A stretch of DNA of 64,000 nt from an uncultured Eubacteriales bacterium (GCA_964627535.1 CAZVJW010000007.1:3144-67143), one strand, 5' to 3'. Counted from the first letter of the stretch, positions 9,598 through 62,020 are shown. Made by a program: numbers and translations. The notes: a model not told the origin generated them from the sequence alone.

Positions 9598-9697
9598 TAC
9601 TAATTCACGATTAAAAACCTCTAAAAAATTAAGCAAAAGCTTTAATCTATAAGGTTTTGTGCGGATTTTTTAGTTAGGTTTTTATGAGTAATTAGTA
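9598..9697 (-). repeat. MITE-like ~100-bp element with terminal inverted repeats, copy 1 (inverted orientation)
   Basis: Rev-comp aligns end-to-end with copies at 13455 and 41056: tactaattactcataaaaacctaactaaaaaatccgcacaaaacc...aaagcttttgcttRattttttagaggtttttaatcgtgaattagta. Confidence 0.85.
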
Positions 9698-9702
9698 TCA
9701 CA

Positions 9703-10149
9703 TCACAAAAGTTTTTTAATTTCTGCTTTTAAAATCATTTTCATTTCGCCAAGTTCCGCTTCTGACGGTCTTTTGCTGTCATTCCACATTTCTTCTCTCG
9801 GCAGCCACCATACGGGGCCCTTTTCCGGCATGTCGCCTTCATTCCTGGGAAATATATGCCAATGCAAATGAGTTTCGCCGTTGCCCAACAGTTCATAATT
9901 CAGTTTTTGAGGGTTAAACGCATTATAGACAGCCTCCGCGACCAAAGCCATTTCCTCAAGGTATTTCAGTTTGAATTCAGGTTCAAGAAAGTGCAGCTCG
10001 GCTGCATGCTCTTTGCATAAGAACAAGGTATATCCCTTAAAATGCTGATGATCCCCAAGCACAACATAGCCTGTTTCAAGCTCATAAACGAAGTATGGGT
10101 TTGTACCGTCTTTTGTTTGTTGTATTCTATCGCATACCGGACATTTCAT
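9703..10149 (-). CDS. HIT-family (histidine triad) nucleotide hydrolase
   Basis: HxHxHxx motif (..GETHLHWHIFPR..), ~150 aa. Confidence 0.8.
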   Translation of the reverse strand: MKCPVCDRIQQTKDGTNPYFVYELETGYVVLGDHQHFKGYTLFLCKEHAAELHFLEPEFKLKYLEEMALVAEAVYNAFNPQKLNYELLGNGETHLHWHIFPRNEGDMPEKGPVWWLPREEMWNDSKRPSEAELGEMKMILKAEIKKLL

Positions 10150-10721
10150 CCTTTACCCTCCGATTTCTTGTTTAGATTCACTTGCTCCTTAATATACTCC
10201 ATCGTAAAGGCAGGCTTCAGTGTTAGATTTTCTTTAGCCAGAATTTCGGTTGCGTTTTCGTTTCTTTGAATGACACAAAGCACAGTGTCAATAATAGCAC
10301 CCCTGTTGCGAAGCTCTTTTACACTCTCGATTATTTGACCGCCGGTGGTAACAACATCTTCAACAACGCAAACTCTCTTACCGTTAACATCAGCGCCCTC
10401 TGCCAATTTGCATGTACCGTATTACTTAGCTTTTTTTCTGACAAATGCGCAATGAATATTCGCTTCAATAGAAAGCGCGGTTGCAACCGGTATGCCGCCC
10501 ATCTCTAAACCTGCTAACACTTCTGTATCCGCCGGAATCAAGTCTCTCATAATTTTTGCTATTTGAACGAGCAATTGCGGCTGCGCTTCAAACAGATACT
10601 TGTCAAAGTATTCATTGGATATTTGTCCTGAACGCAAAGTGAATTCTCCTGTTATGTGCGCTGTCTCATAAATACTTTTTGCGATATCAGTTTTTAACAT
10701 TTTATTCTCCTTGTATTTCAA
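10146..10721 (-). pseudogene. Orotate-phosphoribosyltransferase-like type I PRTase interrupted by an in-frame TAA (10422-10424)
   Basis: ORFs 10422..10721 (..GGIPVATALSIEANIHCAFVRKKAK*) and 10146..10406 (..GKRVCVVEDVVTTGGQIIESV..) are in the same phase and together align with PyrE (FVRKEAKDHGTG..GxRVLVVEDVITTG). Only a TAA separates them. Confidence 0.75.
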
Positions 10722-11586
10722 AATTCTGACTCATTGATTTTACCATACGCAAATACTCCGTTATATTTTTATCTTCGTCTTGGTTATAAGAAAATCCTAA
10801 ATGCCCGGCGACAGTGGGTGCTATTGTTCTGAACAACTCGCAGGCAGTAAGTATTGCCGGCCAAAGGTTATCATAACTGCTGTCGGAATAGGTCTTGGCG
10901 TACATTTCATACAAGTCTGACAGCAGATATTTTTTATAATACTTACCGCTCATACCCACCGAAACAGAGAAGTCCGTCTTGATACCGATATACCAATCAA
11001 TCATCTTAACGAGCATATCGCGCACAATGACATTGTACATCCACATGGCATATGGCAATTGATCTCTCGCAATTCCTTTGGCCACATTATTCAGGCACCA
11101 CCAAAACTCGTTGCAGCAGCTTGAATATTTAATTTCGGTTGGTTTTTGAACCCAATAATTCTCATCGGACGGTGGTGGAATTTCGGGCAGGCAGTTGTCT
11201 TTATCAAGCAGGGGAACTGTCAACTTGTCGTTTTTATATTCGTCAAGCATGGCTTCTTTTGTTTGGATATGCAAATCAATGCGGTTTCCGTCTTTAAACA
11301 GCATCAGCCAGGTGTAAGAACGGTCAAATTCCATTTTCATTTCAAAGCCGATGTCGTTTATATCCGGTTCTTGCAGAATAGCCAGCTCTCCGAAAACCGA
11401 AATCCAATTTTTATCTTTCAGAAAAGACTTGGTTTCTTTTACAACATAGACAATATCGTAATCCTGATAGATATCTTTGGTAACATTGGGGTTGGCGCGC
11501 GAACCGTTCAAATAAACAGCACGAATACGCTCATCAGCTTTCGCAACGCCCAAAATCAGGTCGAACATTTTTCTTTCTGTACGCAT
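10702..11586 (-). CDS. ant(6): Aminoglycoside 6-nucleotidyltransferase ANT(6) (AadE/AadK family, streptomycin adenylyltransferase)
   Basis: MRTERKMFDLILGVAKADERIRAVYLNGSRANPNV.. closely parallels AadE MRSEKEMMDLVLSLAEQDERIRIVTLEGSRANINI..; conserved ..CCNEFWW.. block; ~294 aa. Confidence 0.85.
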   Translation of the reverse strand: MRTERKMFDLILGVAKADERIRAVYLNGSRANPNVTKDIYQDYDIVYVVKETKSFLKDKNWISVFGELAILQEPDINDIGFEMKMEFDRSYTWLMLFKDGNRIDLHIQTKEAMLDEYKNDKLTVPLLDKDNCLPEIPPPSDENYWVQKPTEIKYSSCCNEFWWCLNNVAKGIARDQLPYAMWMYNVIVRDMLVKMIDWYIGIKTDFSVSVGMSGKYYKKYLLSDLYEMYAKTYSDSSYDNLWPAILTACELFRTIAPTVAGHLGFSYNQDEDKNITEYLRMVKSMSQNFEIQGE

Positions 11587-12524
11587 TTCGAGCCTCTTTT
11601 CTGTTTGTCATCCGGAGTAACAATATTAGATTTCAAGTTCCTGTCAACAATTTTCTCGCCGTTTTGCAACTTGCCAATCAGCATCTCACCATCTTGCTTA
11701 TGCTTTTCACAATTACGTTTAACCGATGACTCGCTGTAATTGGCATAACAGTATATGCAGCTATTTTTGCATGTGTTGTAAGCTCCAATATCGATACTTT
11801 GATAGCATCCACAGCCCTTACGCTGATTATAATCGGGTGAAATATTTAGCTTCGCTCCACATATTCGTTCAATTAAGGCTTTATCAACACAGCTTGCTTT
11901 TTCTATTCCAAATATTGTTAAATCGTTGGATTCCGAGCAAGCCTTTGCAATGAGACCATACTCTTTTGCCGTTTTTCCAATAAATTCACTAAGGTTCGCA
12001 ATTTCATCAGTTGTAATTTGACGAACTGAATCTGTCTTTAATTTTGCATAGGTATCGACAAAACTGATTGTTACACTTTCGGTATACGGATAAAGTTTGT
12101 CGCAAAGCCTTGAAAACTGCTCTTTATGGTAATCCACCGATAAACTGCTATTTAACACGATAGGGTCATATCGCCACAAAACGCGCTCTTTTCCGATTGC
12201 ATTGCTGAGTTCAATAAAAGAGTTTTCAATATCGGCTTTATCACGTAAATTTCTTTCAATTGTTCTGTCATACGGTGTTAGCGTGTGTTGAAAATAGAAT
12301 TTATAGCCCATATCGTCAATTGCTTTAAGATGCGGAATAAAATTTTTTGCATCTTTCGTCCAAAACACAATACAGTCAACTACATCGGGTGAAAGCAGGA
12401 TTTTACTTATTTGTGCATGATTCATCGGATTGCGTGAAAGAAAATACCCCGCTTTCAAGCGGTTCATAAACCACTCGACGTAATAGCAGGGGATGTCTGT
12501 ACGGCGGGAAACGGAGAGTATCAT
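11556..12524 (-). CDS. DUF1848-family protein (Cys-rich, putative Fe-S)
   Basis: Family-typical N-terminus MILSVSRRTDIPCYY; C-terminal Cys cluster CGCYQSIDIGAYNTCKNSCIYCYAN. The start is set at the internal ATG (12522-24, RBS GAGGTGA) because the track start at 12575 lies inside repeat copy 2. Confidence 0.6.
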   Translation of the reverse strand: MILSVSRRTDIPCYYVEWFMNRLKAGYFLSRNPMNHAQISKILLSPDVVDCIVFWTKDAKNFIPHLKAIDDMGYKFYFQHTLTPYDRTIERNLRDKADIENSFIELSNAIGKERVLWRYDPIVLNSSLSVDYHKEQFSRLCDKLYPYTESVTISFVDTYAKLKTDSVRQITTDEIANLSEFIGKTAKEYGLIAKACSESNDLTIFGIEKASCVDKALIERICGAKLNISPDYNQRKGCGCYQSIDIGAYNTCKNSCIYCYANYSESSVKRNCEKHKQDGEMLIGKLQNGEKIVDRNLKSNIVTPDDKQKRGSKCVQKEKCST

Positions 12525-12574
12525 AAAATCACCTCGCAATCCTGTGGATTTATATTGATTATCCTGTGCAATCA

Positions 12575-12707
12575 TACTAATTATTCATAAAAACCTAACT
12601 AAAAAATCCGCACAAAACCTAATAATACTATTCTGCATTAAAATGAAGAATCGTATGAATCAAAGCTTTTGCTTGATTTTTTGGAGATTTTTAATCGTGA
12701 ATTTGTA
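12575..12707 (+). repeat. MITE-like element copy 2 (133 bp; carries a 33-bp internal insertion)
   Basis: Same TIRs (tactaattattcataaaaacctaactaaaaaat ... atttttaatcgtgaatttgta). Confidence 0.85.
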
Positions 12708-12738
12708 TCAGTTGTTCAAGTACGATATTTGTATATTG

Positions 12739-13353
12739 CTATATGGGAATCCCTAAATTTCTCAACTTTTCATACAATCCATCATAATCTCTTTTCACAT
12801 GGTTAAAGTAGATAACCCTCATGCCCATTTTCATGGGGACGACCAAGTTCTTTTCCTGATTATCAATAAATACACACTCGTCAGTATTGAGATTTAAAGC
12901 ATTGGTTGAATGTTTAAATATTTTTTCACTATCCTTACCTGAACCGACATTCGCTGAAACAGTAACAACATCGAATAGCTTATCCCATCCGTATTGCTCG
13001 ACAATACTGTCGATACGGTCCTTTTTATTGTCTGTTATCATGCCGATTCTATAATTTTGTTCTTTAAGTTTTATAGCGAGCGTCATCATTTTACTGTCAA
13101 TCGGTGTGTTGATAAAAGAGTCATAAAGCACATCTATGCTTGTGTCGGTTTTTATATTGCGGCATAGTTGCCCCCACATATCGGTATGGGCGATTTTTCC
13201 GTACAGAAGGTCATTGTTATATTTGTAATATTCATTTTTGAACAAATCCAAGTCAATGCCTGTCTTTTTTGCTATGTAATTACAAATAGAGGTTGAGCCC
13301 GTGGCGTCGGTGGTTAAAACACCGTCGAAGTCGAACAATATTGCTTTTAACAT
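12739..13353 (-). CDS. HAD-superfamily hydrolase
   Basis: Motif I LFDFDGVLT at the N-terminus; ~200 aa. Confidence 0.8.
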   Translation of the reverse strand: MLKAILFDFDGVLTTDATGSTSICNYIAKKTGIDLDLFKNEYYKYNNDLLYGKIAHTDMWGQLCRNIKTDTSIDVLYDSFINTPIDSKMMTLAIKLKEQNYRIGMITDNKKDRIDSIVEQYGWDKLFDVVTVSANVGSGKDSEKIFKHSTNALNLNTDECVFIDNQEKNLVVPMKMGMRVIYFNHVKRDYDGLYEKLRNLGIPI

Positions 13354-13454
13354 TAAGCAACCCCGCTTTCAATTATGGGAAAGTTTTTTATCACAATCAA
13401 TCTCAGCGAAAGCACAGTAAGCAATGCAAAATACAAATAGTTGAGGCACGATTA

Positions 13455-13555
13455 TACTAATTACTCATAAAAACCTAACTAAAAAATTCGCACAAAACCT
13501 AATGAATCAAAGCTTTTGCTTGATTTTTTTAGAGGTTTTTAATCGTTAATTAGTA
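13455..13555 (+). repeat. MITE-like element copy 3 (101 bp)
   Basis: tactaattactcataaaaacctaactaaaaaattcgcacaaaacctaatgaatcaaagcttttgcttgatttttttagaggtttttaatcgttaattagta. Confidence 0.9.
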
Positions 13556-13570
13556 TTAGGTCCCTTTGAT

Positions 13571-14365
13571 TCAATCCTTTAATATCGGCAAAAGCCAAAC
13601 AAAGACATTTTCAATAGCTGTGTCAGCCATGTTATCGAGCTCATGCGTACCGCCTTCAATTTCAATAAGCGTTGCCGGGAGATTTTTACATCTCATTAAA
13701 TCATAAGCCGTTTTCGCATCGGCACAACGGAAAGTATTGTCGGCAGTGCCTTGCAGAAACAGCACTGGGCATTTGATTTTATCCATTGTATGTATGGGCG
13801 CTTTACTTATGGTGTCGGTGTAAAAGTTTATTCCGAAATCCACACCGAAAATGTTTGCGGTTCCGCAGGACAATAAAACTTCTAAATTGTCGGAAAGGAG
13901 CTTTGCGGGGCCGCCTTTGTTCATCCCGATATGTGCGCTGATACAGGTTCCGACTGAAATGATAAAATTGATTCTATCGTCCTCTGCCGCTAAACGAAGT
14001 GCCGCAGTTGAGCCGGAGCTGAACGCATAAGAGCCGATTTTACTTTCTTGTGCAAAAGGCTGTTCCTTAACCCAAGTAATAACATCGGCAAGGTTGTTCT
14101 TCCAGCGGGTGTAGGTCATCTGACTATATTTGCCTCCGGTTTCACCGCAACCAAAAAAGTCAAAGGTAACGAGAGCAATGTTTTCTTTCATCGCTCTTTC
14201 ACACAGTTTTTCGGTAGGATTCCAAAGTTGTCGTCTGCCGCCCCAACCGTGACAGTAAATTATCACAGGTATATTTTCAGCGCCCTCAATTGGCAGATAA
14301 ACCGTTCCGAAATTTTGGTCACCTGTGTTCAATTTGAAATCGTATGTGTACATAGCAAACCTCAC
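13571..14365 (-). CDS. Alpha/beta-fold hydrolase (dienelactone hydrolase/S9-like)
   Basis: ..IIYCHGWGGRRQ.. and nucleophile elbow ..GSYAFSSGS..; 264 aa. Confidence 0.65.
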   Translation of the reverse strand: MRFAMYTYDFKLNTGDQNFGTVYLPIEGAENIPVIIYCHGWGGRRQLWNPTEKLCERAMKENIALVTFDFFGCGETGGKYSQMTYTRWKNNLADVITWVKEQPFAQESKIGSYAFSSGSTAALRLAAEDDRINFIISVGTCISAHIGMNKGGPAKLLSDNLEVLLSCGTANIFGVDFGINFYTDTISKAPIHTMDKIKCPVLFLQGTADNTFRCADAKTAYDLMRCKNLPATLIEIEGGTHELDNMADTAIENVFVWLLPILKD

Positions 14366-14376
14366 ATAAACTGATC

Positions 14377-15255
14377 TTACTTTCTGCCGCTATAGATCAG
14401 CACGGTGCTTGTTGCAATATCCCATAGCTTTTCTCCGTGCATATATTGATCTATGCGAATATCATATCGCTTGTTAATCAGTGCAATTAATTCTTCGTAT
14501 TCTTTTGTTGTTAAAGCAGAGGGGGCTAACCGCTGTGCTTTTTCTATACTGCTCAATTCATGTAAACGGTTAACATTGATTTGTTCTATTGCCGTTTCTT
14601 CGGAAATAGTTGAACTGTCGGGTGCATATGAAACAACAGATATAATATTGACGCTGACATCATTAAAACCATTTTTAAACAAATAGGCAAGATGCTCACT
14701 TTCCGTCAGTTCGTGCCGACTAACAACACTCAAATCATTTTTATCAGCTTCGTTCCATAACTTTTCAAACAAGGCTTTTTCTGCTGAATTGGTAGGCTTC
14801 CATATTTCTGAATTAACGCGTCTTGAAGCAACAAGTATATGTATTTTCCCATTTGACTTTAGAACTCTATATTGTTCCTTGATAAAAGCGTTAGGCTCGC
14901 AGAAGTTCATGACCGTGTGAGAAAAGCACAAGTCAAAGGTATCGTCGGCGAAGGGGAGGGCGACAGCATCGCCGTTAACAAAAGCGCAGTCGATATCAAG
15001 CTCTTTTGATTTTGTCTTTGCATACTGAATATGTCCTATGTCAAAATCGAGTCCCGTCACATTGGTTGTGGGAAGATAAGACTTTATCCTGTGGCAAAAT
15101 ATTCCGCCTCCGCAGCCGACTTCGAGAATATTCATACCGTTTTCAATTTGTAAGGCTTTAAGCCATAAATCCTTATTGCCGTCATGGAAGCGCATAGCCC
15201 TTGAACGGTATAATTCTTCGGAAGTCTGCACATATTGTGACCATTTGTTATCCAT
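14377..15255 (-). CDS. Class I SAM-dependent methyltransferase
   Basis: SAM-binding motif I ..ILEVGCGGGIF.. Confidence 0.75.
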   Translation of the reverse strand: MDNKWSQYVQTSEELYRSRAMRFHDGNKDLWLKALQIENGMNILEVGCGGGIFCHRIKSYLPTTNVTGLDFDIGHIQYAKTKSKELDIDCAFVNGDAVALPFADDTFDLCFSHTVMNFCEPNAFIKEQYRVLKSNGKIHILVASRRVNSEIWKPTNSAEKALFEKLWNEADKNDLSVVSRHELTESEHLAYLFKNGFNDVSVNIISVVSYAPDSSTISEETAIEQINVNRLHELSSIEKAQRLAPSALTTKEYEELIALINKRYDIRIDQYMHGEKLWDIATSTVLIYSGRK

Positions 15256-15400
15256 CAGTTTTTACCTCAGCAATTATAATTATTTCCGACTGAACATGCG
15301 AGGAAAAAGCCTGTTCGCATAAAGGTATACGGTCAGGCTTTTTGCCGGCGAAAACATCGTCGATTCTTTGTTTGTGAGCACTTATTTTTTTATCGGTCAT
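15248..15400 (-). CDS. Small ORF (50 aa, MTDKKISAHKQRIDDVFAGKKPDRIPLCEQAF...), stop overlapping the methyltransferase start (ATGGATAA); possible URO-D/MtaA-family N-terminal remnant or coupled leader ORF
   Basis: Found by hand, not in the track (<60 aa). GGAGA 6 nt upstream of the ATG. Its ..GKKPDRIPLC.. resembles the conserved N-terminal ..DRVPVC.. of URO-D-family proteins. Confidence 0.25.
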   Translation of the reverse strand: MTDKKISAHKQRIDDVFAGKKPDRIPLCEQAFSSHVQSEIIIIAEVKTDG

Positions 15401-15445
15401 AAACATTCTCCGAAAGGTCAAATGACTGTCGTTTTTGAAATATGG

Positions 15446-16000
15446 TTACAGCTTTATCCCCATCGCGACATCGCCAATGCCTTTTGCAAGTTCCGAAAAG
15501 CCGTACTTCTTATAAAAATTGATGCCCAGTTCGTTGGTTCTGCCGACGGTCAGCATAAGCCCGCCGATTCCTTTTGCCTTCAGGTGCTCACTCAAAGCGT
15601 TTACTAACTTGCTGCCGAGGCCTTTGCGCTGGTATTCGTCCAGAATATCGATATGAAGGTGGGCGGGATACTGCGAGGCGTACTTGGCGTGCAGGCGGTA
15701 GGAACCGAGGGAGGCCCTCCATTTGATATAGCCGAGCTCTTTAACCTTCGGCAAATATTTTTCGTTGAAGCGCGCCTGGTACTTTGCGTAGTTTTCCGCG
15801 CAATAGATGTAGCCGATTGCCTCATCCTTTTCGTTTGCTGCCACAAAGCAGTTTTCCGGTTCGCACTCAATATAGTAATCGCAGTAGGTGTCCAATATAA
15901 ATTCCTGATCCCTTTTTATTTTCGGGTTGCCGGCGTTAATCAAACAGATTTTGCGGATATTGTCACGGTCTTTGGGTTGATAAGGTCTGATGGTTTCCAT
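15446..16000 (-). CDS. GNAT-family N-acetyltransferase
   Basis: Acetyl-CoA motif A ..QRKGLGSKLVNAL.. and C-terminal ..FYKKYGF.. Confidence 0.8.
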   Translation of the reverse strand: METIRPYQPKDRDNIRKICLINAGNPKIKRDQEFILDTYCDYYIECEPENCFVAANEKDEAIGYIYCAENYAKYQARFNEKYLPKVKELGYIKWRASLGSYRLHAKYASQYPAHLHIDILDEYQRKGLGSKLVNALSEHLKAKGIGGLMLTVGRTNELGINFYKKYGFSELAKGIGDVAMGIKL

Positions 16001-16026
16001 AGGTATTCTCCTGTTCTAAATATTTT

Positions 16027-16101
16027 GTAGGGGACGGGTTCTCCGTCCCGTTTATTTTTGATTGGTTTTATTCGATTCGGGACGGAAAACCCGTCCCCTA
16101 C
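16027..16101. repeat. Inverted pair of 24-nt hairpin-forming units (gtaggggacgggttctccgtcccg ... cgggacggaaaacccgtcccctac)
   Basis: The arms at 16027-16050 and 16078-16101 are reverse complements (23/24). Each arm is itself a gggacgg/ccgtccc hairpin. Confidence 0.8.
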
Positions 16102-16106
16102 TGATC

Positions 16107-16646
16107 TTATTCAAATAAATAGCAGCTCGTGAATGTTATCGTCTGCGGGCCGTTGTTGTAGGCGACGCCGGAAAGGGTGCATACCTTGCTGACGAATAAA
16201 CCGTAGGCCTCCATGGAAGGAACAGCGAGCTCCGGGAAACGGCAGGGCGCGTCGGGGTAGGTGCATTCGGGGCATACGGAGCAAGCGCCCGCGCCCATCG
16301 GCATCATTTTTGGGAAACGAAGTCGCAAATCGGCAGTGAAGTTTTTAAAGTTTTGCCTGTGCTTTGAGGAGGTTGCTTCAATTGTTTCCCAGTCGAAATC
16401 GTCCTCCATCTGCCCGATAGTCTGCACAAGCAAACCTTTGGAATATTCAGCTGCTCTCAGCGATGCCTCCTCGATGGTTCCGCAGCCGGGGGGGCATGTC
16501 CAGCTTTTGCCGTAACTGTGGCAGCGGTCTGCCGCGCACATGTCCCTGACCTCGGGCATAAACTCAATGGCTTTGCGGTTGAGTTCGCCTGCCTGTGAAA
16601 ATCCCGCGGTTAATGCTTCGTCAATTAATGTTTTCATATCAATCAT
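16107..16646 (-). CDS. DUF2284 predicted metal-binding protein
   Basis: Cys motifs ..CPPGCG.., ..CSVCPEC.. Start set at the internal ATG 16644-46 (RBS AGGAGGT); the track start 16721 is a TTG. Confidence 0.6.
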   Translation of the reverse strand: MIDMKTLIDEALTAGFSQAGELNRKAIEFMPEVRDMCAADRCHSYGKSWTCPPGCGTIEEASLRAAEYSKGLLVQTIGQMEDDFDWETIEATSSKHRQNFKNFTADLRLRFPKMMPMGAGACSVCPECTYPDAPCRFPELAVPSMEAYGLFVSKVCTLSGVAYNNGPQTITFTSCYLFE

Positions 16647-16729
16647 AAAATAAATACCTCCTGTTGCGTTGCTGACTGAAATAGTATATATTAATTTTAT
16701 TAGTGATACAAGTCGAATCAATCAACTCA

Positions 16730-16828
16730 TACTGATTCACGATTAAAACCTCTAAAAAATCAAGTAAAAGCTTTTATTTATGCGGTTTTGCGTGGATTTT
16801 TTCTTAGGGTTTTTATGAGTGATTAATA
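16730..16828 (-). repeat. MITE-like element copy 4 (inverted orientation, more diverged)
   Basis: tactgattcacgattaaaacctctaaaaaat ... ttcttagggtttttatgagtgattaata; rev-comp aligns with the family consensus. Confidence 0.8.
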
Positions 16829-16899
16829 TTGTCTGCAAAACATATAAAAGATATTATCTTTCGGACAAATAATTTGGCTGAAACAAGGGGTGTGCCGCA

Positions 16900-18027
16900 A
16901 TGGTAGAAAGAGAAAAAATGAGCTTGGGTGCTCAAAAAATGCGAGACTTCTACGAGATGAAAAAGGGCGCTCATATCTATCAGGAAGAGTTCGGATTTTT
17001 CACCTTTGACCGCTGGACAGCGGCGGGTTTTTTGAGTGATGATGTTGATTTAAACAAGCTGTTCGGTTATGACGAGCCGGGTAAGTATTCCTTAGGTAAG
17101 TTAGGCTGGTGCGAAAGTGAACTAAACCCCATCTTTAAAGAAGAAGTTTTGGAAGACAGGGGAGAGCATGAACTTGTGCGGGATTTCGCGGGCAGGCATG
17201 TTCTTTATTTCAAGGGGCGAAGGAACGGCTTTATGCCGGAGTATGTTGACCATCCGGTGAAGGATATGCTGACCTGGGAGCGGGATGTCAAATGGCGGCT
17301 TGACCCGTCAACACCAAAACGCTTTGCAGACATCGAAAAGAGAATGGAAAATGCAAAGAACCGGGAAAAGCAGGGGATGGTGATCTGCCAGAACCTGATC
17401 GGCGGCTATATGTATCTTCGCTCGCTCATGGGACCGGAAGGCGTTTTATATATGGTGTACGACGCGCCGGAGCTGATACATGACTGCATGAAAACATGGT
17501 TCGAACTGGCGGATACCGTCATCGCGCAGCATCAGAAGTATGTCACGCTGGATGAAATCTTTTTAGCAGAGGACATCTGTTACAAGGGCGGACCGTTGAT
17601 TTCACCTGCCATGATGCGTGAGTTTTTATTTCCATACTATCAGCAGCTGACATTAAACGCCAAAAACAGGCAGATTGATAAAACGCGGCTGCTTCACATC
17701 CAGATTGATACGGACGGCGACTGCAGGCCGGTGATCCCCGTTTACAAAGAAATCGGCATGGACTATATGTCTCCGTTTGAAGTTGCCTCCGGCTGCGATG
17801 TGGTGGAGCAGAGAAAACAATATCCGGAACTTTTGATGCGCGGCGGGATTGACAAACGGATATTAGCCGAAAGCAAGGATGCCATTGACCGGGAGCTCGA
17901 AAGAATCATGCCTTTTATGCGCGAACAAGGCGGTTATATTCCAACCTGCGACCATGGGGTGCCGGAAGAGGTGCCGTTTGAAAACTACCTGCATTACAGA
18001 AAAAGAATGATTGAATACAGCAGCTGA
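16900..18027 (+). CDS. Uroporphyrinogen-decarboxylase (URO-D/MtaA-like) family protein
   Basis: 375 aa with a URO-D-like C-terminal region (..MPFMREQGGYIPTCDHGVPEEVPFENY..). Confidence 0.6.
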   Translation: MVEREKMSLGAQKMRDFYEMKKGAHIYQEEFGFFTFDRWTAAGFLSDDVDLNKLFGYDEPGKYSLGKLGWCESELNPIFKEEVLEDRGEHELVRDFAGRHVLYFKGRRNGFMPEYVDHPVKDMLTWERDVKWRLDPSTPKRFADIEKRMENAKNREKQGMVICQNLIGGYMYLRSLMGPEGVLYMVYDAPELIHDCMKTWFELADTVIAQHQKYVTLDEIFLAEDICYKGGPLISPAMMREFLFPYYQQLTLNAKNRQIDKTRLLHIQIDTDGDCRPVIPVYKEIGMDYMSPFEVASGCDVVEQRKQYPELLMRGGIDKRILAESKDAIDRELERIMPFMREQGGYIPTCDHGVPEEVPFENYLHYRKRMIEYSS

Positions 18028-18102
18028 GTTTTTAGAATATCGGAACCGCCCTTTTGAAGAAGGTGGCTTCTAAGATTTATATTGAAAACATGACGTAAAA
18101 TT

Positions 18103-18138
18103 GTTACAATGGACACAGTCAAATGTGTCCATTGTAAC
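18103..18138. promoter_or_regulatory. Perfect 15-bp-arm palindrome (gttacaatggacaca-gtcaaa-tgtgtccattgtaac) immediately upstream of the DUF3592 gene; putative operator
   Basis: No T-run follows, so it is not a terminator. It overlaps the likely promoter/RBS region (GGAGG at ~18149-53). Confidence 0.45.
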
Positions 18139-18146
18139 TAATTTAT

Positions 18147-18611: not shown

Positions 18612-18628
18612 TAGTGGTCAGTGGTCAG
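18612..18628 (+). repeat. TAG + 2x TGGTCAG heptamer tandem directly after a stop codon
   Basis: tag|tag tggtcag tggtcag. Related arrays lie at 22201 and 24953. Confidence 0.8.
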
Positions 18629-18672
18629 ACGCTACCTGAAAGACACTTGAGCCTGAAAGGAAGGATATAATC

Positions 18673-19131: not shown

Positions 19132-19155
19132 AGTTAAGAAGAAAAGAGAAAGTCT

Positions 19156-19979: not shown

Positions 19980-20011
19980 CATATAACAGCCAACATCAAA
20001 CAAAGTAAGGA

Positions 20012-26705: not shown

Positions 26706-26784
26706 ATTAGATATTAAATTATTTATATTTCTATTATGGAGTAAAATATTTTGTGCCATAAAGAATAAGTAATTGGATATAAAA

Positions 26785-26815
26785 AAGAAACAATCATCAT
26801 GTAAAGTAGTATTGT
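26785..26815 (+). promoter_or_regulatory. Conserved motif aaaGAAACAAtcatcATGTAAAGTAGTattg upstream of the SGNH gene (shared with 28071-28107)
   Basis: About 22 of 28 identities, including a perfect 12-mer ATGTAAAGTAGT, with the site upstream of the OmpR regulator gene. Confidence 0.45.
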
Positions 26816-26848: not shown

Positions 26849-28015
26849 ATTAAAAAGTTATTTAAAATTATTGCATTGGTTCTGACCGTCTCAGTACTTT
26901 TCTCATCATTTTCTCCACAGACATTTGCTGCAGATAAAAATACAGATAAGATAACCATCTGTATTTATGGCAACAGCTGGGTTTTTACTGGTGATTATGT
27001 TCTCCACCTTGAGGGAGTTTTTAAAAGCAAAGGTATTAGCTGTGAAATTATTCCATTTTACATTGGCGGGTTTGACGGCCTGATACCCAACCAACTAAAA
27101 TTGCTTCAAGAAGACCCCGAACGTCTTGCGCTCCTGAAAAGTGCTGATATTGTTATTGTGGAAGCTATGTATGACCAATACACAAAAGAATTTAACACCT
27201 TCGCTTCTTTGTGTGATGAGGATGCAAAGATCTATGCTATAAATCCGCTGTCCTCTAACGACTCATGCCTTTCATGGGAGTACATGGAATATTATTGGAA
27301 TGATTGGACTGAAAATGATTTAATTTGCAGGTTGTTTAAACAGGTATTTCGTTTACTTTGTTTTATTGATGAACTGGATGCTAAAACAGAAAACAGCTTT
27401 TTTAAGACCATACTCGACGGACTTCGAAATTTAATTGACACAACAATATTCGGAAGATATCTGTACGAAAATAAATACAATTACTATTATTCTTTCTATT
27501 ATTATGAAAAATATTATGGCGTTTCTGATTGGAATTCATTGACAGACTGCCTTGAAAAACTATATGACGAAACAGGTGAATCACATTCAGAGGAGCTTTC
27601 AATGGCTGCAGTTAACAGCATCACCGGATATATCCCGTCCGGGTACATCAATGATGACCTGCTTATAAATGAGGGCTTCGACTCCTATGACTTGCGTGGA
27701 CCAGACAGCGGTCGCCATCCAAACACGCTATCGGGGTATATTGCCGCAATCAGCACTTACAGCATTATCTTCGGCGAATCCGCTTCAAACATCAGTTATA
27801 GACTTAATGATGAAGATCTATGTGCTTTACCGAAAAAAGGTATAAAAAGCAAACTGTCCTCGGATGAAATAATGAATACCGTCCAAAATGTTACGGACGA
27901 AACAATTAAATGGTATGTACAGAAAATGCAAGACTTAAAGAACTCTCTTATATGGGATGAAACCAAGGGGTATTATGTAAAAAGCGAAAACAGCGTTCTG
28001 CCATATATATATTGA
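26849..28015 (+). CDS. Secreted SGNH/GDSL-like hydrolase; probable non-canonical ATT start
   Basis: In-frame extension of track ORF 26876..28015 gives a textbook signal peptide (I/M)KKLFKIIALVLTVSVLFSSFSPQTFA|ADK. RBS AAGGGGG lies 8 nt before the ATT at 26849. Block-I-like ..ICIYGNSW.. and block-V-like ..DSGRHPN.. Confidence 0.5.
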   Translation: MKKLFKIIALVLTVSVLFSSFSPQTFAADKNTDKITICIYGNSWVFTGDYVLHLEGVFKSKGISCEIIPFYIGGFDGLIPNQLKLLQEDPERLALLKSADIVIVEAMYDQYTKEFNTFASLCDEDAKIYAINPLSSNDSCLSWEYMEYYWNDWTENDLICRLFKQVFRLLCFIDELDAKTENSFFKTILDGLRNLIDTTIFGRYLYENKYNYYYSFYYYEKYYGVSDWNSLTDCLEKLYDETGESHSEELSMAAVNSITGYIPSGYINDDLLINEGFDSYDLRGPDSGRHPNTLSGYIAAISTYSIIFGESASNISYRLNDEDLCALPKKGIKSKLSSDEIMNTVQNVTDETIKWYVQKMQDLKNSLIWDETKGYYVKSENSVLPYIY

Positions 28016-28070
28016 TCTATGATATGACGGTTATTATGATTGTGTCAAAAAGAAAAAGGTTTTGGACACA

Positions 28071-28107
28071 AAAAGGAAACAACTTCGATGTAAAGTAGTG
28101 CTATTCG
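28071..28107 (+). promoter_or_regulatory. Second copy of the GAAACAA...ATGTAAAGTAGT motif, ~115 nt upstream of the response-regulator gene
   Basis: aaaagGAAACAActtcgATGTAAAGTAGTgctattcg. Confidence 0.45.
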
Positions 28108-28219
28108 AATTATTCATTTCTATTTTACATGAGGTTTTTTGCATCTTCGATTCTTATTTGACCACAGTTGATACATCAGTGTGGATTCATGTTTAATAAA
28201 TACATCGGGGGAAGCTGTT

Positions 28220-28891
28220 ATGAGTTACAGAATATTGATGGTTGAAGATGACTCGCGGTACATGAAGCTCGTTTCGGACTATTTCAGAAAAAACGGTTTC
28301 TTTGTTACCTGCGCCGAAAACGGCGACAAGGCATTGCAGATATTTGCAAACGAGGATTTCGACGCTGTTCTGCTCGATGTGATGATGCCGGGAGTAGATG
28401 GATATTATGTATGCAAAAGGCTGCGTGAAACCAGCAATGTTCCGATTCTGTTTGTTACGGCCAGGGGTGATCTGAGCGACACCGAGTACGGCTTTCGCCT
28501 GGGCGCGGATGACTATATTGTTAAACCGTATTCCGAAAGAGTTCTGCTGCTGAAGGTGCAGGCACTGATTGACCGGGCGCAGGGCGCGCTGGTCTCGGGC
28601 AATGTGATAGAGCTCTGTGGTATATACCTTGACAAGGAAACGCACAGAGCAACGGTTGATGGCGAGGAAATTCAGCTCACGCCGAAACTCTTTTCCATGC
28701 TGCTGTTGCTGATGGAACACAAGGGGAAGGTGCTTTCCCGGGAGCAGTTGCTCGACCGGGTGTGGGGTTACGACTTTTTCGGCGACGCAAGAGTGGTGGA
28801 CACACATATCGCAAAGTTGAGGAAAGCACTCGGAAAAAGTGAAGACCATATAGAAACCATCCCGAAATTAGGCTACAAGTTCGAAGAATAA
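28220..28891 (+). CDS. OmpR-family response regulator
   Basis: MSYRILMVEDD.. receiver domain; C-terminal winged helix (..ETIPKLGYKFEE). Start set at the ATG with RBS GGGGGAAG. Confidence 0.9.
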   Translation: MSYRILMVEDDSRYMKLVSDYFRKNGFFVTCAENGDKALQIFANEDFDAVLLDVMMPGVDGYYVCKRLRETSNVPILFVTARGDLSDTEYGFRLGADDYIVKPYSERVLLLKVQALIDRAQGALVSGNVIELCGIYLDKETHRATVDGEEIQLTPKLFSMLLLLMEHKGKVLSREQLLDRVWGYDFFGDARVVDTHIAKLRKALGKSEDHIETIPKLGYKFEE

Positions 28892-41020: not shown

Positions 41021-41055
41021 GCATGCATGCTTACTTACTCGAATCTGTTAAATCA

Positions 41056-41155
41056 TACTAATTACTCATAAAAACCTAACTAAAAATTCCGCATAAAACC
41101 CCATAAATCAAAGCTTTTGCTTGATTTTTTAGAGGCTTTTTATCGTGAATTAGTA
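41056..41155 (+). repeat. MITE-like element copy 5 (100 bp), abutting the stop codon of the regulator gene
   Basis: tactaattactcataaaaacctaactaaaaattccgcataaaaccccataaatcaaagcttttgcttgattttttagaggctttttatcgtgaattagta. Confidence 0.9.
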
Positions 41156-42277
41156 TCAGTTATGTTGTTTTTCTTTCTTTGCATAGGGCTTATATTTTTC
41201 AAAAATCGTCTTAAATCCGTCCGTTTTCCCAATATCACCGTTACCAAAATGCAAATCTAAAATTTCAAGCTCTCGTGCTATTTCATTTTGACTTTCTCCG
41301 CAACATATTTTCATCATATCATCTGTAATGGTATCAACTAAAAACGAAGTGTGCTTTGATATCGTTGGTAACTCATCGTATGCTTTACCATAAGCTAACC
41401 CTTTATCAAGATAGTCAAAAGCCGTATTATATTCCTTCAAATCTAAATACCTATATGCAATCCAAATATTGAGTTCACACAGATTGTAGAAATCAAAGCC
41501 GTAATCGCCATCATCATATATTAAGTTCAATAAATCTACAGCTTTCTGAAGAATACGAATTCTAGTTTTTGCATCGGCTTTTGAATGCAATGCACAGTTC
41601 CTGATTTTTACCATCAGACATTCGGTAAGATTTTTGATGTTCTTTTGAACACATGGAAACCACTCTTCTGTGCCCCGAACATAAATGTTTTCCATTTCTT
41701 CGTCTGCCGTAAAATAATAATGTTCAGGGAAACGCTTGGCGGTTTCTATTGCTTTTTCTATGTTGCCATCAAGGCAATATAGGCTGCTCAAAATCGAAAG
41801 TGCGCTGTATCTAGGCTTGTCGAGCCGACACTCATCAAACACTCTATCGCACAGTTTGTATAGTTCCTCCTTATGAACCTCGTTTCCGTAAGGTGCTTCT
41901 TTACAATTTGGGTCATAAGTAAGCTGCCACATATATTCATCGACTATTCTGAAATCGTTGGGGAATTCTTTATATGCGGTACACATTAAATTGTATTTTT
42001 CCATGCTTTTTCCGAGTGCGGAAAGTTTGCGGAATTCACTTAAATAGTTTTCTATCTTTTCTTCATTTTTCGCCGCGTCAAGCCCGAGCAACTTGTCGGT
42101 TGTTACACAAAAATAGCTTGCAAGCGGAAGAATCATTGTGATATCGGGATAGGTTTCATTTCTTTCCCATTTTGACACGGCTTGCGTGCTGACATTAAGA
42201 TGCTCCGCCAGCTTTTCCTGCGTGATATTTTTATCGCGGCGCAGACGCTTGATGTTTTCTCCAATACAGATATTCAT
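41156..42277 (-). CDS. HTH-XRE + TPR-like regulator, RRNPP (Rgg/PlcR/NprR-like) architecture
   Basis: N-terminal ..IKRLRRDKNITQEKLAEHLNVSTQAVSKWERNETYPDITMILPLASYF..; ~300-aa helical-repeat C-terminal domain. Confidence 0.6.
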   Translation of the reverse strand: MNICIGENIKRLRRDKNITQEKLAEHLNVSTQAVSKWERNETYPDITMILPLASYFCVTTDKLLGLDAAKNEEKIENYLSEFRKLSALGKSMEKYNLMCTAYKEFPNDFRIVDEYMWQLTYDPNCKEAPYGNEVHKEELYKLCDRVFDECRLDKPRYSALSILSSLYCLDGNIEKAIETAKRFPEHYYFTADEEMENIYVRGTEEWFPCVQKNIKNLTECLMVKIRNCALHSKADAKTRIRILQKAVDLLNLIYDDGDYGFDFYNLCELNIWIAYRYLDLKEYNTAFDYLDKGLAYGKAYDELPTISKHTSFLVDTITDDMMKICCGESQNEIARELEILDLHFGNGDIGKTDGFKTIFEKYKPYAKKEKQHN

Positions 42278-52834: not shown

Positions 52835-52909
52835 ATTAAATCATAAAGCTATGCAAACGGTTTCAAGTTATCCCGCGTATTTCATGAAGTGATTGAATAA
52901 ATTTGGCAC

Positions 52910-54607: not shown

Positions 54608-54682
54608 CATTCAGCTCAACATTTTATTTACAGATACTATTCACCATTTAGAAGACAGTATGATACGAAAGGAAAGAGTGAC

Positions 54683-55924: not shown

Positions 55925-56011
55925 AACAACAAATGCATGTGCGGATTTCTCGAATACTTGCATGAATAATAACTGTTAAAATCTGTTCCAATTTAAAAAA
56001 GGAAATATAAA

Positions 56012-58381: not shown

Positions 58382-58404
58382 CAATCAACTATCGGAGGGC
58401 GTTC

Positions 58405-59232
58405 ATGAACGGTATTGTTTTTGATATTCAGCGATTTTCGATTGATGACGGACCGGGCATCAGAACAACCGTGTTTTTAAAGGGATGCGGGTTAAGGTGC
58501 CTGTGGTGCCACAATCCGGAAGGGCTGCAGGAATGCCCCGAGATTATGTTTTTTCCGCAAAAGTGCATCGGCTGTGGGAAATGCTTCCAAGTCTGTTTGC
58601 AAAAATGCCACAAGACTGAGAACGGTACCAGAGAATTTTTAAGAGAATACTGCCTTCGCTGCGGCAAATGCGCTGAAGTGTGTTATTCGGGAGCCTTGAG
58701 CGTATCCGGAAAGAGCATGTCCGCGGCTGAAGTTGTTGCTGAAATCGAAAAGGACGGCATGTTTTACGAAAACTCCGGGGGGGGAGTAACCTTTTCGGGC
58801 GGAGAGCCTTTGCTTCAGGCGGATTTTATGCGGGAAATGATGATCATGTGCAAAAAACTCGGATACAGCTGCGCGGTGGAAACCGCAGGAAATACCGCAT
58901 GGAGTGAATTTGAAAAAATCTTGCCTTATACCGACCTGTTCCTTTATGATATTAAAGCGATTGACGAAAAACTCCACAAAAAGGTGACGGGAGCGGGTAA
59001 CAAACGGATTATCGGCAACCTCAGAAAGCTGGCGGGTGAAAAACCGGAGATATGGATAAGAACGCCGGAGATTCCCGGCATCAACGATACCCCGGAGGAA
59101 AAGCAGAAGCTTTCCGAACTGCTGCTGGAGCTTAAGGCGGTCAAAACCCATGTTTATATGCCTTATCACCGGCTTGGCGAAAGCAAGTATACAAGTTTAG
59201 GACTTCTGCCGCCATTCCTTCCAACCCTTTAA
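58405..59232 (+). CDS. Glycyl-radical-enzyme activating enzyme (radical SAM) with two auxiliary ferredoxin-like clusters
   Basis: CGLRCLWCHNPE (CxxxCxxC) plus CIGCGKCFQVC and CLRCGKCAEVC; 275 aa. Confidence 0.85.
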   Translation: MNGIVFDIQRFSIDDGPGIRTTVFLKGCGLRCLWCHNPEGLQECPEIMFFPQKCIGCGKCFQVCLQKCHKTENGTREFLREYCLRCGKCAEVCYSGALSVSGKSMSAAEVVAEIEKDGMFYENSGGGVTFSGGEPLLQADFMREMMIMCKKLGYSCAVETAGNTAWSEFEKILPYTDLFLYDIKAIDEKLHKKVTGAGNKRIIGNLRKLAGEKPEIWIRTPEIPGINDTPEEKQKLSELLLELKAVKTHVYMPYHRLGESKYTSLGLLPPFLPTL

Positions 59233-59253
59233 TTATTTTGACAATATATAATC

Positions 59254-59282
59254 AAGCCACGGCTAAAAAAGCCGTGGCTTGA
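59254..59282 (+). terminator. Hairpin agccacggc-taaaaaa-gccgtggct after the activase gene (weak T-tail)
   Basis: 9-bp stem. The downstream T-run is poor. Confidence 0.35.
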
Positions 59283-59383
59283 TACTAATCCATCTTAAAA
59301 ACATAGCTAAAAATCTGCATAAAACCCCATAAATCAAAGCTTTTGCTTGGTTTTTTTAGAGGTTTTTTAATCGTGAATTAGTA
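59283..59383 (+). repeat. MITE-like element copy 6 (left TIR degenerate)
   Basis: tactaatccatcttaaaaacatagctaaaaatctgcataaaaccccataaatcaaagcttttgcttggtttttttagaggttttttaatcgtgaattagta. Confidence 0.8.
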
Positions 59384-59389
59384 TGACTG

Positions 59390-61588
59390 CTAAAAGGATA
59401 TAATTTTTCCTGAGGCAAACCTTAAAATCATAAGCGCGTCAAGCGAATCGGTCTCGCTGTCTTTGTTTATATCGGCAACGAGTTTTTGAGCATCTGTCAG
59501 TGTAATCTTCCCGGAGGCTGAACGTAATAACATCAAGGCATCAAGAGAATCAATGTTTACATCAGTATTCAAATCGCCGATCATACTCCAAAGCGCAGTA
59601 TATGTTGCGTTATCAGCTCCAACCGTTGCGGAAACTGCCTGATCCCAACCGGTAAAAATATAACCTGCTCTTGATACTGTCGGTGGGGTAATGGTTTCAC
59701 CATAGTGCATTAAACTGTTTGTGCTTCCTGTTCCGCCGTTTGCATCAAAGGTGATTATATAACTGTTGATCTGCCACTCCGCCGTATAGGTCGCGCTATT
59801 TCCGGGAACTGTCGTGGGAACCGAAGGCGCCCAACCGATGAAATAATAGCCTTCTCTTGAAACATCCGGTGCGGTAAGCGGACCTCCCGGGGTCATTTCC
59901 GTACGTGTATCGCCTTCACCGCCGTTGGCATCAAAAATTATCATTACCGTTGCCGGCGAAGTCGGAGACCAAATAGCCGACACCGTAACATCATGAGCCG
60001 GCATTATAAACGACCCCATGGACCATCCTAAAAATGTATAACCCGGCCTTGTAGGGAGTTCAAGCATAACATCCGGAACATAAATCGGGTCGTTAAGCGG
60101 GTCCGGAGATTGAAGGCTTACCTTGAATTGAGGGAAAGTAGTTATCGTTACCATTGTTCCGGCAGGTATCAAATAGTCTAATACCATACCGCCGCTTCCC
60201 CCGTTTTCGTCGAAGTCAAGGTGATATCTCGGGTTGCTCCACTTAGCGTAAAGGGTTTGATCCGATGTTATTGTCACCATAGTGGTGCTGTAAATGCATG
60301 TTCCGCTGCCGTCTGTACCTGTATACCATCCGCTGAAAACCTTACCTGATTTTGTTGGTTCCGGTAAAGTCCCGTAAGTGAGACCGGTCGTTACCGTTAT
60401 GGTTGCCGGCGAGACCGTGCCGCCCTGCGGGTCAAAAGTGACAGTGAAAACGGTGACAGGTATCCATTTGGCATAAAGGGTTTGCGCCGATGTAATTGAT
60501 ACATAATTAGTTGCGTAAACTCTGGTTCCCGCGCCGCCCGGACTAGTATACCAGCCCGAAAAAACATAATCTGTCCTTGACGGTGTCGGTAAGGTACCGT
60601 AGCTGTTTAAATATATGACGGTTATGGATGACGGCGTTACCGTGCCGCCCTGTGCGTCAAAAGTGACTGTAAAAGTGCTTGCCGCCCATTGCGCCTTATA
60701 GGTTGTGCTTTTTTGTGGAACGGTCGCAGGTACCAAAGGTGACCAGCCTGTAAAAGTATAGCCGGCTTTTGTAATAACGGGCGCAGTAAGTGCCAAGCCA
60801 GGCAGCATCGGGTTGCTTGTGCCTCCTATGCCGCCGTTGGCATTGAAGACAATGGTTGAATAACCGGGTATTTCGGTTAGATAGCCGTACCAAGGGCTGA
60901 TAAAACCCGTTTTACCGCTTAAATAAAATACGGTAAAACCCGAAGCACAGCCCAAAAAAACCGTGTTTCCTAAAGTTGGCGCATTGCCTAAAAAGTATGC
61001 TGAGGCTAAACTTGTACAATTTTTGAAAGCATTGTTGCCGATACTGCTCACATGGTCGCCGATGGTCACTGTAGTCAGACCGTCGCTATAAACAAATGCG
61101 CCGCCGTTAATAGTGGTTACACTGTTTGGTATCACTACCTCGGTCAGACCGTCACAACCCTGAAAAGCAGTTGAGCCGATGACTGTTAAACTGTCAGGCA
61201 GGTTTAGGGAAGTCAGGTGTGTGCAATTCAAGAAAGCGCCGCTGCCAATTGCTGTGACATTTGTCCCAAATACCAAATCGGTCATTCCGCTGCAACCCCA
61301 GAAGGCAGAACTGCCGATAGTCGTCACACTGTTTGGTATAACAACACTTGTTATCGCCGTATTGTTCAGAAAGACCTGCGAACCGATATCGGTCACCGAA
61401 TAACCGCCCAATTCGGCAGGGATGTTTATGACGCCGCCTGTACCGCTATAAGCAGTAATCGTCGCCTTTGAGTCTGTAACCGTATAGGTGTAAACTCCGC
61501 TTGTTAAAGCGGAGGACATGATTGATCCTGCAGGGAAAACGAACAAAACCATCACGAAGACCATAATAGCTGACAACACTTTTTTCAT
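59390..61588 (-). CDS. Cell-surface protein: signal peptide, BspA-type leucine-rich repeats, Listeria/Bacteroides-type (GYTFTGW) repeats, C-terminal type-I dockerin
   Basis: LRR units ..SVVIPNSVTTIGSSAFWGCSGMT..; repeated ..AGYTFTGWS../..VFSGWYT..; C-terminal GDLNTDVNIDSLDALMLLRSASG...ADINKDSETDSLDALMILRFASG (duplicated Ca-binding dockerin segment). Confidence 0.75.
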   Translation of the reverse strand: MKKVLSAIMVFVMVLFVFPAGSIMSSALTSGVYTYTVTDSKATITAYSGTGGVINIPAELGGYSVTDIGSQVFLNNTAITSVVIPNSVTTIGSSAFWGCSGMTDLVFGTNVTAIGSGAFLNCTHLTSLNLPDSLTVIGSTAFQGCDGLTEVVIPNSVTTINGGAFVYSDGLTTVTIGDHVSSIGNNAFKNCTSLASAYFLGNAPTLGNTVFLGCASGFTVFYLSGKTGFISPWYGYLTEIPGYSTIVFNANGGIGGTSNPMLPGLALTAPVITKAGYTFTGWSPLVPATVPQKSTTYKAQWAASTFTVTFDAQGGTVTPSSITVIYLNSYGTLPTPSRTDYVFSGWYTSPGGAGTRVYATNYVSITSAQTLYAKWIPVTVFTVTFDPQGGTVSPATITVTTGLTYGTLPEPTKSGKVFSGWYTGTDGSGTCIYSTTMVTITSDQTLYAKWSNPRYHLDFDENGGSGGMVLDYLIPAGTMVTITTFPQFKVSLQSPDPLNDPIYVPDVMLELPTRPGYTFLGWSMGSFIMPAHDVTVSAIWSPTSPATVMIIFDANGGEGDTRTEMTPGGPLTAPDVSREGYYFIGWAPSVPTTVPGNSATYTAEWQINSYIITFDANGGTGSTNSLMHYGETITPPTVSRAGYIFTGWDQAVSATVGADNATYTALWSMIGDLNTDVNIDSLDALMLLRSASGKITLTDAQKLVADINKDSETDSLDALMILRFASGKIISF

Positions 61589-61930
61589 AATAATTCTCCC
61601 CCCAAAATTGACATGTTAAGCGGATGTGATTTTTTTTGCTTTTATAGCCGCCAAAACCGGAACAGAGAAACCAAAACCGGAAACTATGCCTGACTATATA
61701 TTGCGGAAAAAACACGCCCTATTAAATTTTATACTGTCTATTGTATTTCTAAACAAAACAGTTTTTACAGAAACTTATATTAACAATATATTACACTTTA
61801 ATTATATAATAAAATTCCATATTGTCAACAGAATGGTATGTTTTGCATGTAGAATTTCAGCCTGCAGATTTGTGTATTATTACTAAATACAAAAAATAAG
61901 CGGGCAGCAATACGATTTAAAATCATATAA

Positions 61931-62020
61931 TACTAATTACTCATAAAAACCTAACTAAAAAATCAGCATAAAACCCTATAAATCAAAGATTTAACTTAGC
62001 TTTTTAATCGTGAATTAGTA
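61931..62020 (+). repeat. MITE-like element copy 7 (90 bp, central deletion)
   Basis: tactaattactcataaaaacctaactaaaaaatcagcataaaaccctataaatcaaagatttaacttagctttttaatcgtgaattagta. Confidence 0.85.

Follow-up and report, generated by a model that had tools for sequence, protein, structure and literature searches.

What kind of sequence recurs seven times, always between genes and in either orientation, in 64,000 nucleotides of the chromosome of an uncultured bacterium assigned to the Eubacteriales (GCA_964627535.1, CAZVJW010000007.1:3144-67143; this whole stretch is called the window below)? A reading made from the sequence alone had described the repeat as a dispersed family of intergenic elements of about 100 bp, likened it to MITEs, the miniature inverted-repeat transposable elements, or to REPINs and, since each copy begins and ends with TA, suggested a TA target-site duplication and mobilization of the IS630/Tc1 kind. 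Here, we examine the copies of the window, those found in other genomes and the corresponding vacant sites of related bacteria. We consider it very likely that these repeats are a non-autonomous DNA transposon, in other words a MITE, which has TAC...GTA ends and inserts at TNA with a 3-bp duplication. The MITE family is genuine and, as far as the literature that we searched goes, previously uncatalogued, no description of this repeat having been found there; it is an ordinary kind of bacterial selfish DNA, and it involves no new system or mechanism.

Empty Sites and the Target Duplication

Two empty sites, of the sort that the sequence-only reading had proposed to look for, were found in related genomes. 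The more informative of them lies in the spacer between a KDPG-aldolase gene and obg, which is occupied by a copy in the contigs L004 and L048. Four contigs of a related genome (L062, L063, L064, and L065) have no element there; on either side, they align collinearly with L048 over kilobases (83-91% identity). The empty site reads GCT-TAA-CAACCGAAGRAAGC and the filled one GCC-TAA-(101-nt element)-TAA-CAACCGAAAAAAGC; in their wider context, the two are ...GCAAGAGCT-TAA-CAACCGAAG... and ...GCAAGGGCC-TAA-(101-nt element)-TAA-CAACCGAAA..., respectively. The gap between them is exactly 104 nt, that is, the 101-nt element and one additional TAA, and the 3 bp that have been duplicated are the stop codon of the aldolase gene. 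This site therefore establishes that the element is an insertion, that its ends are TAC...GTA and that exactly 3 bp are duplicated when it enters.

The second empty site corresponds to the fifth copy of the window (the seven copies are numbered c1 to c7; table 1). Four contigs (L066, L067, L068, and L069) lack the element; their identity to the window is 83-95% as far as the stop codon of a helix-turn-helix (HTH) regulator gene, where they have a single TGA followed by TTTGTCAGATT..., the window counterpart being TTTAACAGATT.... The sequence after this TGA, TTTGTCAGATTGGCG..., can be set beside TTTAACAGATTCGAG..., which in the window follows the element and the second TGA, and 16 of the 24 positions match at a fixed offset (P about 2e-4). 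The comparison is short because the downstream gene differs in these relatives. At the junctions of the empty and filled aldolase/obg sites, the longest direct repeat is exactly 3 bp, TAA.

Weaker evidence for an alternation of presence and absence comes from other loci. The spacer beside the glycyl-radical activase gene that is orthologous to the c6 site has no element in L041, L042, and L043. L049, whose sequencing run also yielded a contig with 100% identity to the window, lacks the aldolase/obg copy and carries another at the end of its mini-RNase III gene, a position that is vacant in L048. About 37 kb of two related genomes (L050 and L060) contained no copies. The element is thus present or absent at orthologous sites of related genomes and this, together with the target duplication, shows that it was inserted and not inherited.

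The same target is seen when the complete copies are aligned with their flanks. There are 11 such copies, the seven of the window and one each in L002, L003, L004, and L005, and the triplets directly outside TACTAATT...AATTAGTA are T-N-A on both sides. Perfect TNA/TNA flanks are found in 8 of the 11 copies; the flanks of the other three differ by one or two bases, the worst being those of c4, which is also the most diverged copy. The middle base of the triplet varies among the copies (A, C, G, and T all occur) and agrees within the copy in nine of them (P = 1.4e-4). Because it is variable between copies yet the same within a copy, the triplet is part of a target duplication and not of the element. 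Integration is at 5'-TNA-3', with duplication of exactly 3 bp.

Two or three of the 11 copies have a stop codon as their target: the TGA or TAA with which the adjacent gene ends was used, and the duplication regenerates it. These are c5, the L004 copy and, probably, the L003 copy. Since TAA and TGA (complements TTA and TCA) are themselves TNA sites, the element can enter a stop codon and regenerate it, and very short spacers can as a result be occupied without damage to the gene, a fit that these insertions illustrate. A share of 3/11 is suggestive, but it does not clearly exceed what chance would give among intergenic TNA sites. A separate observation concerns the L049 copy, where the open reading frame (ORF) called as mini-RNase III (L049 3340-3762) extends into the element and has its stop, a TAA, there, its C-terminus differing from that of the L048 orthologue; this copy is preceded by an AGA triplet, not TNA, and the contig ends within it.

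Architecture and Copy Number

A BLAST search of the window with one copy as query and an nhmmer profile built from the 11 complete copies recover the same seven copies, at the coordinates first assigned to them (profile E values 1e-16 to 4e-27; the rest of the BLAST output was noise), and the profile reveals no further degenerate copies or solo ends in the window. The left-end 33-mer has five matches in the window at no more than three mismatches, compared with none in 100 shuffles; for the family as a whole, seven copies stand against an expectation of none by chance. All seven copies lie between ORFs, and five are + strand and two - strand copies, so that the intergenic location and the mixed orientation were read correctly, as were the 33-bp insertion in c2 and the deletion in c7, now put at ~11 bp. 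With a length of 90-133 bp and stop codons throughout, the copies are too short for a transposase and have no coding capacity.

The element is AT-rich and its terminal inverted repeats, ~33 nt long, are imperfect: when the right end is reverse-complemented and set against the left, 32 of 40 aligned columns match, with three mismatches and two short gaps in the first ~35 columns, and 92.9% of the cells across the 11 copies are paired. The consensus proposed earlier agrees with the computed one, whose layout, TACTAATT..ACTCAT.AAAAACCT..CTAAAAAAT, consists of the repeats around a core of ~34 nt with a small hairpin. This central hairpin, which the sequence-only reading had also recognized, is AAAGC-TTTT-GCTT; it lies right of centre and is followed by a run of T residues (T6). 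Folding, a check that the same reading had recommended, turns the whole element into one long hairpin, considerably more stable than shuffled controls (z = -5.5 and -7.5 as RNA; z = -5.8 as DNA). The family thus combines small size (prokaryotic MITEs have about 50-800 bp) and no coding capacity, terminal inverted repeats, a target duplication with an empty site, and dispersed copies in both orientations, all of them features of a MITE.

Table 1. Copies of the element, their flanking triplets, and other features located in the window
Feature	Position	Strand	Length (bp)	Flanking triplets (left / right)	Neighbouring genes and remarks
c1	9598-9697	-	100	TGA / TGG in element orientation, one mismatch (+ strand: CCA 9595-9597, TCA 9698-9700)	nhmmer E=1.8e-26; HIT-domain gene 9703-10149 (-) and AraC/GyrI-like gene 8645-9526 (-)
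c2	12575-12707	+	133	TCA 12572-12574 / TCA 12708-12710, perfect duplication	Internal insertion (33 bp) following ...AAAACCT; ~48 bp upstream of the DUF1848 gene (probable start ATG 12524, GAGGTGA before ATG); downstream of the HAD hydrolase gene
c3	13455-13555	+	101	TTA 13452-13454 / TTA 13556-13558, perfect duplication	alpha/beta-hydrolase gene 13571-14365 (-) and HAD hydrolase gene 12739-13353 (-)
c4	16730-16828	-	99	CAA / TGA in element orientation, decayed duplication	Most diverged copy, 79-89% identity to the others; divergent neighbours DUF2284 16107-16721 (-) and URO-D-like 16900-18027 (+)
c5	41056-41155	+	100	TCA 41053-41055 / TCA 41156-41158, perfect duplication	Stop-codon target: HTH regulator gene 41156-42277 (-) has its TGA stop codon in the second TCA (41156-41158)
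c6	59283-59383	+	101	TGA 59280-59282 / TGA 59384-59386, perfect duplication	Between convergent genes
c7	61931-62020	+	90	TAA 61928-61930 / TAA 62021-62023, perfect duplication	~11-bp deletion; inner part of the right inverted repeat gone
L002 copy				TCA / TTA	
L003 copy				TAA / TAA	Probable stop-codon target, L003 about 5882-5884
L004 copy				TAA / TAA	Stop-codon target, L004 2753-2755 (= L048 5791-5793)
L005 copy				TAA / TAA	
ANT(6)-type streptomycin adenylyltransferase gene	10702-11586	-			Within the 7900-16720 run
Gene after 60-nt direct repeat	26876-28015				No Pfam match
Response regulator gene after 60-nt direct repeat	28181-28891				

Distribution and Divergence

The family has a patchy distribution and is known from at least four or five Oscillospiraceae genomes. 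Outside the window, copies occur at unrelated loci of at least four other contigs or genomes; in other Oscillospiraceae metagenome-assembled genomes (MAGs), they lie among housekeeping genes (Obg/aldolase, NUDIX/EF-P, and a pseudouridine synthase gene). A 21-mer scan of a collection with one genome per species, to which the source genome does not belong, gave only four copies, in two Oscillospiraceae MAGs. A metagenome scan with a low-complexity 19-mer returned 35 matches, of which 34 were due to chance and only the L005 copy was a true member. Three pattern scans and two BLAST searches yielded no copies in viral contigs, phages or plasmids, only chance 17-19-mers. Two candidates were set aside, a weak profile match in L023, which is not a member of the family, and a match of 59 nt at 80% in a Bacteroides phage, which we regard as noise. 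The MAGs from which the related copies and the near-identical proteins derive are labelled Oscillospiraceae or Eubacteriales, and the host of the window is an uncultured Oscillospiraceae bacterium of gut or rumen type.

The copies of the window are, on average, no closer to one another (86.8% mean identity) than to the copies in other genomes (89.0%). Their divergence is star-like and conservation is even over the inverted repeats and the core (0.94 / 0.91 / 0.92), the L005 copy being nearly equal to the consensus. Such a pattern fits a decay of the copies from a shared, conserved master.

Three of the contigs that we fetched, L001, L040, and L049, are short-read contigs with an end inside the element, as is to be expected of a multi-copy repeat, and the family thus explains assembly breaks in short-read assemblies of uncultured, fibre-degrading Oscillospiraceae. 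Its insertions can also serve as strain-level presence/absence markers. The practical value of both points is modest.

The Mobilizing Enzyme

How such an element would move can be outlined from its target. A DDE transposase supplied in trans would bind both inverted repeats, cut the TNA site with a stagger of 3 nt and then join the element to it; where the site is a stop codon, the duplicated TNA would regenerate the stop. Any copies that are co-transcribed would place a hairpin of ~100 nt in 3' or 5' untranslated regions (UTRs), with a putative effect on termination or mRNA stability. Elements of the IS1031 group favour 5'-TNA-3' and produce a direct repeat that is exclusively of 3 bp (PMC12016507), and PIF/Harbinger and related superfamily members have 3-bp TWA or TNA duplications (PMC4482050). 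Since a 3-bp TNA duplication is the signature of these two groups, an enzyme of the IS1031 subgroup (IS5 family) or of the PIF/Harbinger type would most probably be the driver. As no transposase with matching ends was found, this enzyme is one that we infer.

Several observations weigh against the view that the family is a MITE of this sort, and they are of three kinds. The first concerns the enzyme. Pfam searches revealed no transposase of any kind among 50 ORFs of the window and none among 10 ORFs that adjoin copies of other genomes, and none is listed among the genes of the additional loci that were fetched. The full-length insertion sequence with the same inverted repeats that the sequence-only reading had proposed to seek did not turn up: neither the window nor the fetched loci, ~0.5 Mb in all, yielded such an autonomous partner. 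The second concerns the ends. The IS1031 group usually has inverted repeats of about 15-20 bp with GA or GAG ends, from which the TAC... termini of this family differ, and these termini are also unlike the GAACCTG... inverted repeat of an IS1031-group example. The third concerns the copies themselves. No two are identical, the closest pair in the window sharing 93%, so that very recent activity in this genome is not apparent; four of the seven lie within one 7-kb stretch; and the empty site of c5 is at a synteny breakpoint, similarity reaching only ~24 nt beyond the target. Given the unlike termini and the lack of a partner, we file the family as a MITE with an IS1031/Harbinger-like target signature and not as a proven derivative of either group.

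Alternative Explanations

The sequence-only reading had named two outcomes that would have told against a mobile element: copies confined to one locus and one orientation, which would favour a cassette recombination site, and conserved covariation, which would favour a structured RNA gene. What we find is copies at several loci and in both orientations, and no convincing covariation for an RNA gene. Five other accounts nevertheless deserve to be weighed.

The first enlarges on the MITE reading. It would combine an undescribed Oscillospiraceae transposase lineage, with the TNA/3-bp chemistry of IS1031 and PIF-Harbinger enzymes and long TAC...GTA repeats, a targeting of stop codons as safe harbours, and a later use of some copies by the host as hairpins in 3' UTRs. 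We regard this conjunction as rather unlikely. The last component, if true, would help to explain identities of ~90% across species in which ordinary intergenic DNA cannot be aligned.

The second holds that the repeats are structured noncoding RNA genes or cis-regulatory elements (terminators, 3'-UTR stabilizers or small RNAs) maintained by selection; a MITE origin is compatible with it through exaptation of some copies. The strength of the fold (z = -5.5 to -7.5) would suit this explanation, as would a core as conserved as the ends, the central hairpin followed by T6, and an identity of 88-95% between genomes whose ordinary intergenic DNA is unalignable. Double changes occur at three base pairs, but each of the three compensatory changes is in a single sequence, the control shuffles are only marginally exceeded, and paired changes in inverted repeats are also expected from recognition by a transposase. 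There is no Rfam 15 match at gathering score over the whole window and none at E <= 10 on c1-c4 (9400-17000). Within that same interval, a consensus scan predicted no terminator inside these four copies, and the sole promoter-like match touching a copy is a borderline one (TTGTCT-17-TATTAT, 16829-16857), one base beyond c4. The orientation relative to neighbouring genes is inconsistent, an insertion of 33 bp and a deletion of 11 bp have been tolerated, and the element, there or missing at orthologous sites and accompanied by a target duplication, has been inserted and not inherited. As the primary explanation of the family, a structured RNA is improbable.

The third is that of a MITE moved by a transposase of the IS630/Tc1-mariner type with a 2-bp TA duplication, as the sequence-only reading had envisaged. 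TA does stand at the start and end of every copy, and bacterial MITEs of similar size, RUP and Correia, use TA. Here, however, the terminal TA lies within the inverted repeat and so is not the duplicated target, the one point in which the original description needs correcting; the TA model leaves unexplained why the same N recurs in the T-N-A-[TA]...[TA]-T-N-A flanks; and a single TAA at the empty site corresponds to two at the filled one, with no junction repeat longer than 3 bp. Both the TA duplication and the mobilization deduced from it must accordingly be given up in favour of the 3-bp TNA duplication, and we think there is very little chance that an enzyme of this type is responsible.

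The fourth would make the repeat a REPIN/REP-type element spread by a RAYT (Y1/HUH) transposase, which a short, dense, intergenic and palindromic hairpin repeat in both orientations does bring to mind. Mobilization of the REP/REPIN and IS200/IS605 types, however, leaves no target duplication, and here one of 3 bp is seen; moreover, this is an AT-rich sequence whose terminal inverted repeats are long, and it is not built of paired, short, GC-rich REP palindromes. No integrase, Y1/HUH or RAYT gene was detected among the 50 ORFs of the window that were scanned with Pfam. Of the two names first offered, MITE is therefore upheld by the empty sites, and REPIN, which the 3-bp duplication and the architecture contradict, is a highly implausible one. 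Elements of the IS200/IS605-type PATE class are ruled out by the target duplication and the terminal inverted repeats.

The weakest suggestion, to which we give almost no credence, is that the copies are integron-like attC cassette recombination sites in the gene run at 9.5-17 kb: four copies lie there between small accessory genes on one strand, they are imperfect palindromes of attC-like size, and GTTAGGT in one arm matches GTTRRRY when read from the sequence, but the copies of this run are in mixed orientation (-, +, +, -), the core motif is on one arm only and is likely due to chance, the window has no integrase gene, other copies lie among housekeeping genes, both elsewhere in the window and in other genomes, and at the empty site the element alone and 3 bp have been inserted, with no gene cassette.

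Comparison with Known Families

Considered as a MITE with a TNA target, the family can be placed beside several known systems. Correia elements of Neisseria and RUP elements of Streptococcus pneumoniae are intergenic MITEs of ~100-150 bp with inverted repeats of 26-30 nt, present in hundreds of copies, about one per 8-20 kb, in both orientations, and often co-transcribed as long hairpins; Correia has no known active transposase. They differ from the present family in duplicating TA, where 3 bp of TNA are duplicated here; they have no sequence similarity to it, and the host clade here is the Oscillospiraceae. REPINs, and REP sequences with their RAYT, are likewise short, abundant, hairpin-forming intergenic repeats, but REPINs are GC-rich and have neither a target duplication nor long terminal inverted repeats, whereas this family has a 3-bp duplication.

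The nearer resemblance is to the MITEs of the IS1031 subgroup and to the Tourist/PIF-Harbinger MITEs of eukaryotes, which are also small and non-coding and have terminal inverted repeats and AT-rich targets. Measured against the GA(G)-type ends of the IS1031 group, the TAC...GTA termini stand apart. The main likeness to both is the sequence-specific 3-bp duplication of 5'-TNA-3' (PMC12016507, PMC4482050). ISLrh, a member of the IS1031 group, has an inverted repeat of 17 bp, GAACCTGTCTAGTATCT (PMC12016507), about half the length of the ~33-nt repeats here. A descent from the IS1031 group is suggested by a single feature, the target signature. The family adds an example from the Firmicutes to the bacterial MITEs with a TNA target.

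Genomic Context

The window is a piece of ordinary chromosome, with a pst/phoU operon, several two-component systems, a glycyl-radical enzyme and its activase, ABC transporters, and dockerin/LRR surface proteins. The c6 copy lies directly 3' of the stem of a terminator hairpin, AGCCACGGC-TAAAAAA-GCCGTGGCT (59233-59282), of the activase gene, and because it entered right after the stem it has parted the latter from the sequence that was originally 3' of it.

Four of the seven copies are in a run of small minus-strand genes with a lower GC content (37-42%) at 7900-16720. Besides the ANT(6)-type gene (table 1), this run contains AlkZ-related, AraC/GyrI-like, HIT, DUF1848, HAD hydrolase, alpha/beta hydrolase, methyltransferase, GNAT and DUF2284 genes, with c2 and c3, in the same orientation, on either side of the HAD gene. 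The run, in which neither an integrase nor a transposase was detected, is possibly an accessory island; a look-up of the exact abhydrolase and HAD proteins of the window gave no identical record.

Between the GNAT and DUF2284 genes of this run (16029-16099) are two GC-rich hairpins, GGGGACGGGTTCTCCGTCCC and GGGACGGAAAACCCGTCCCC, in inverted arrangement, which together form a palindrome of ~70 nt (GTAGGGGACGGGTT...AACCCGTCCCCTAC). Possible readings of it are a REPIN-like doublet and a bidirectional terminator, and it is unrelated to the MITE family. No other copies of the palindrome were seen in the window or the fetched loci, and its Rfam matches are only to generic hairpins, below threshold; one of its arms, 26 nt long, recurs with 100% identity at L002 902-927, where the MAG is a different one and the flanks are unrelated.

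Two further repeats of the window are of other kinds. A 72-bp tandem repeat at 293-580, of at least four units that are 92-95% identical, lies within an ORF (263-895) with no Pfam match. Finally, a direct repeat of 60 nt (26751-26810 and 28040-28099, 77% identity) stands just upstream of two genes (table 1), for which it may be a shared promoter or operator.

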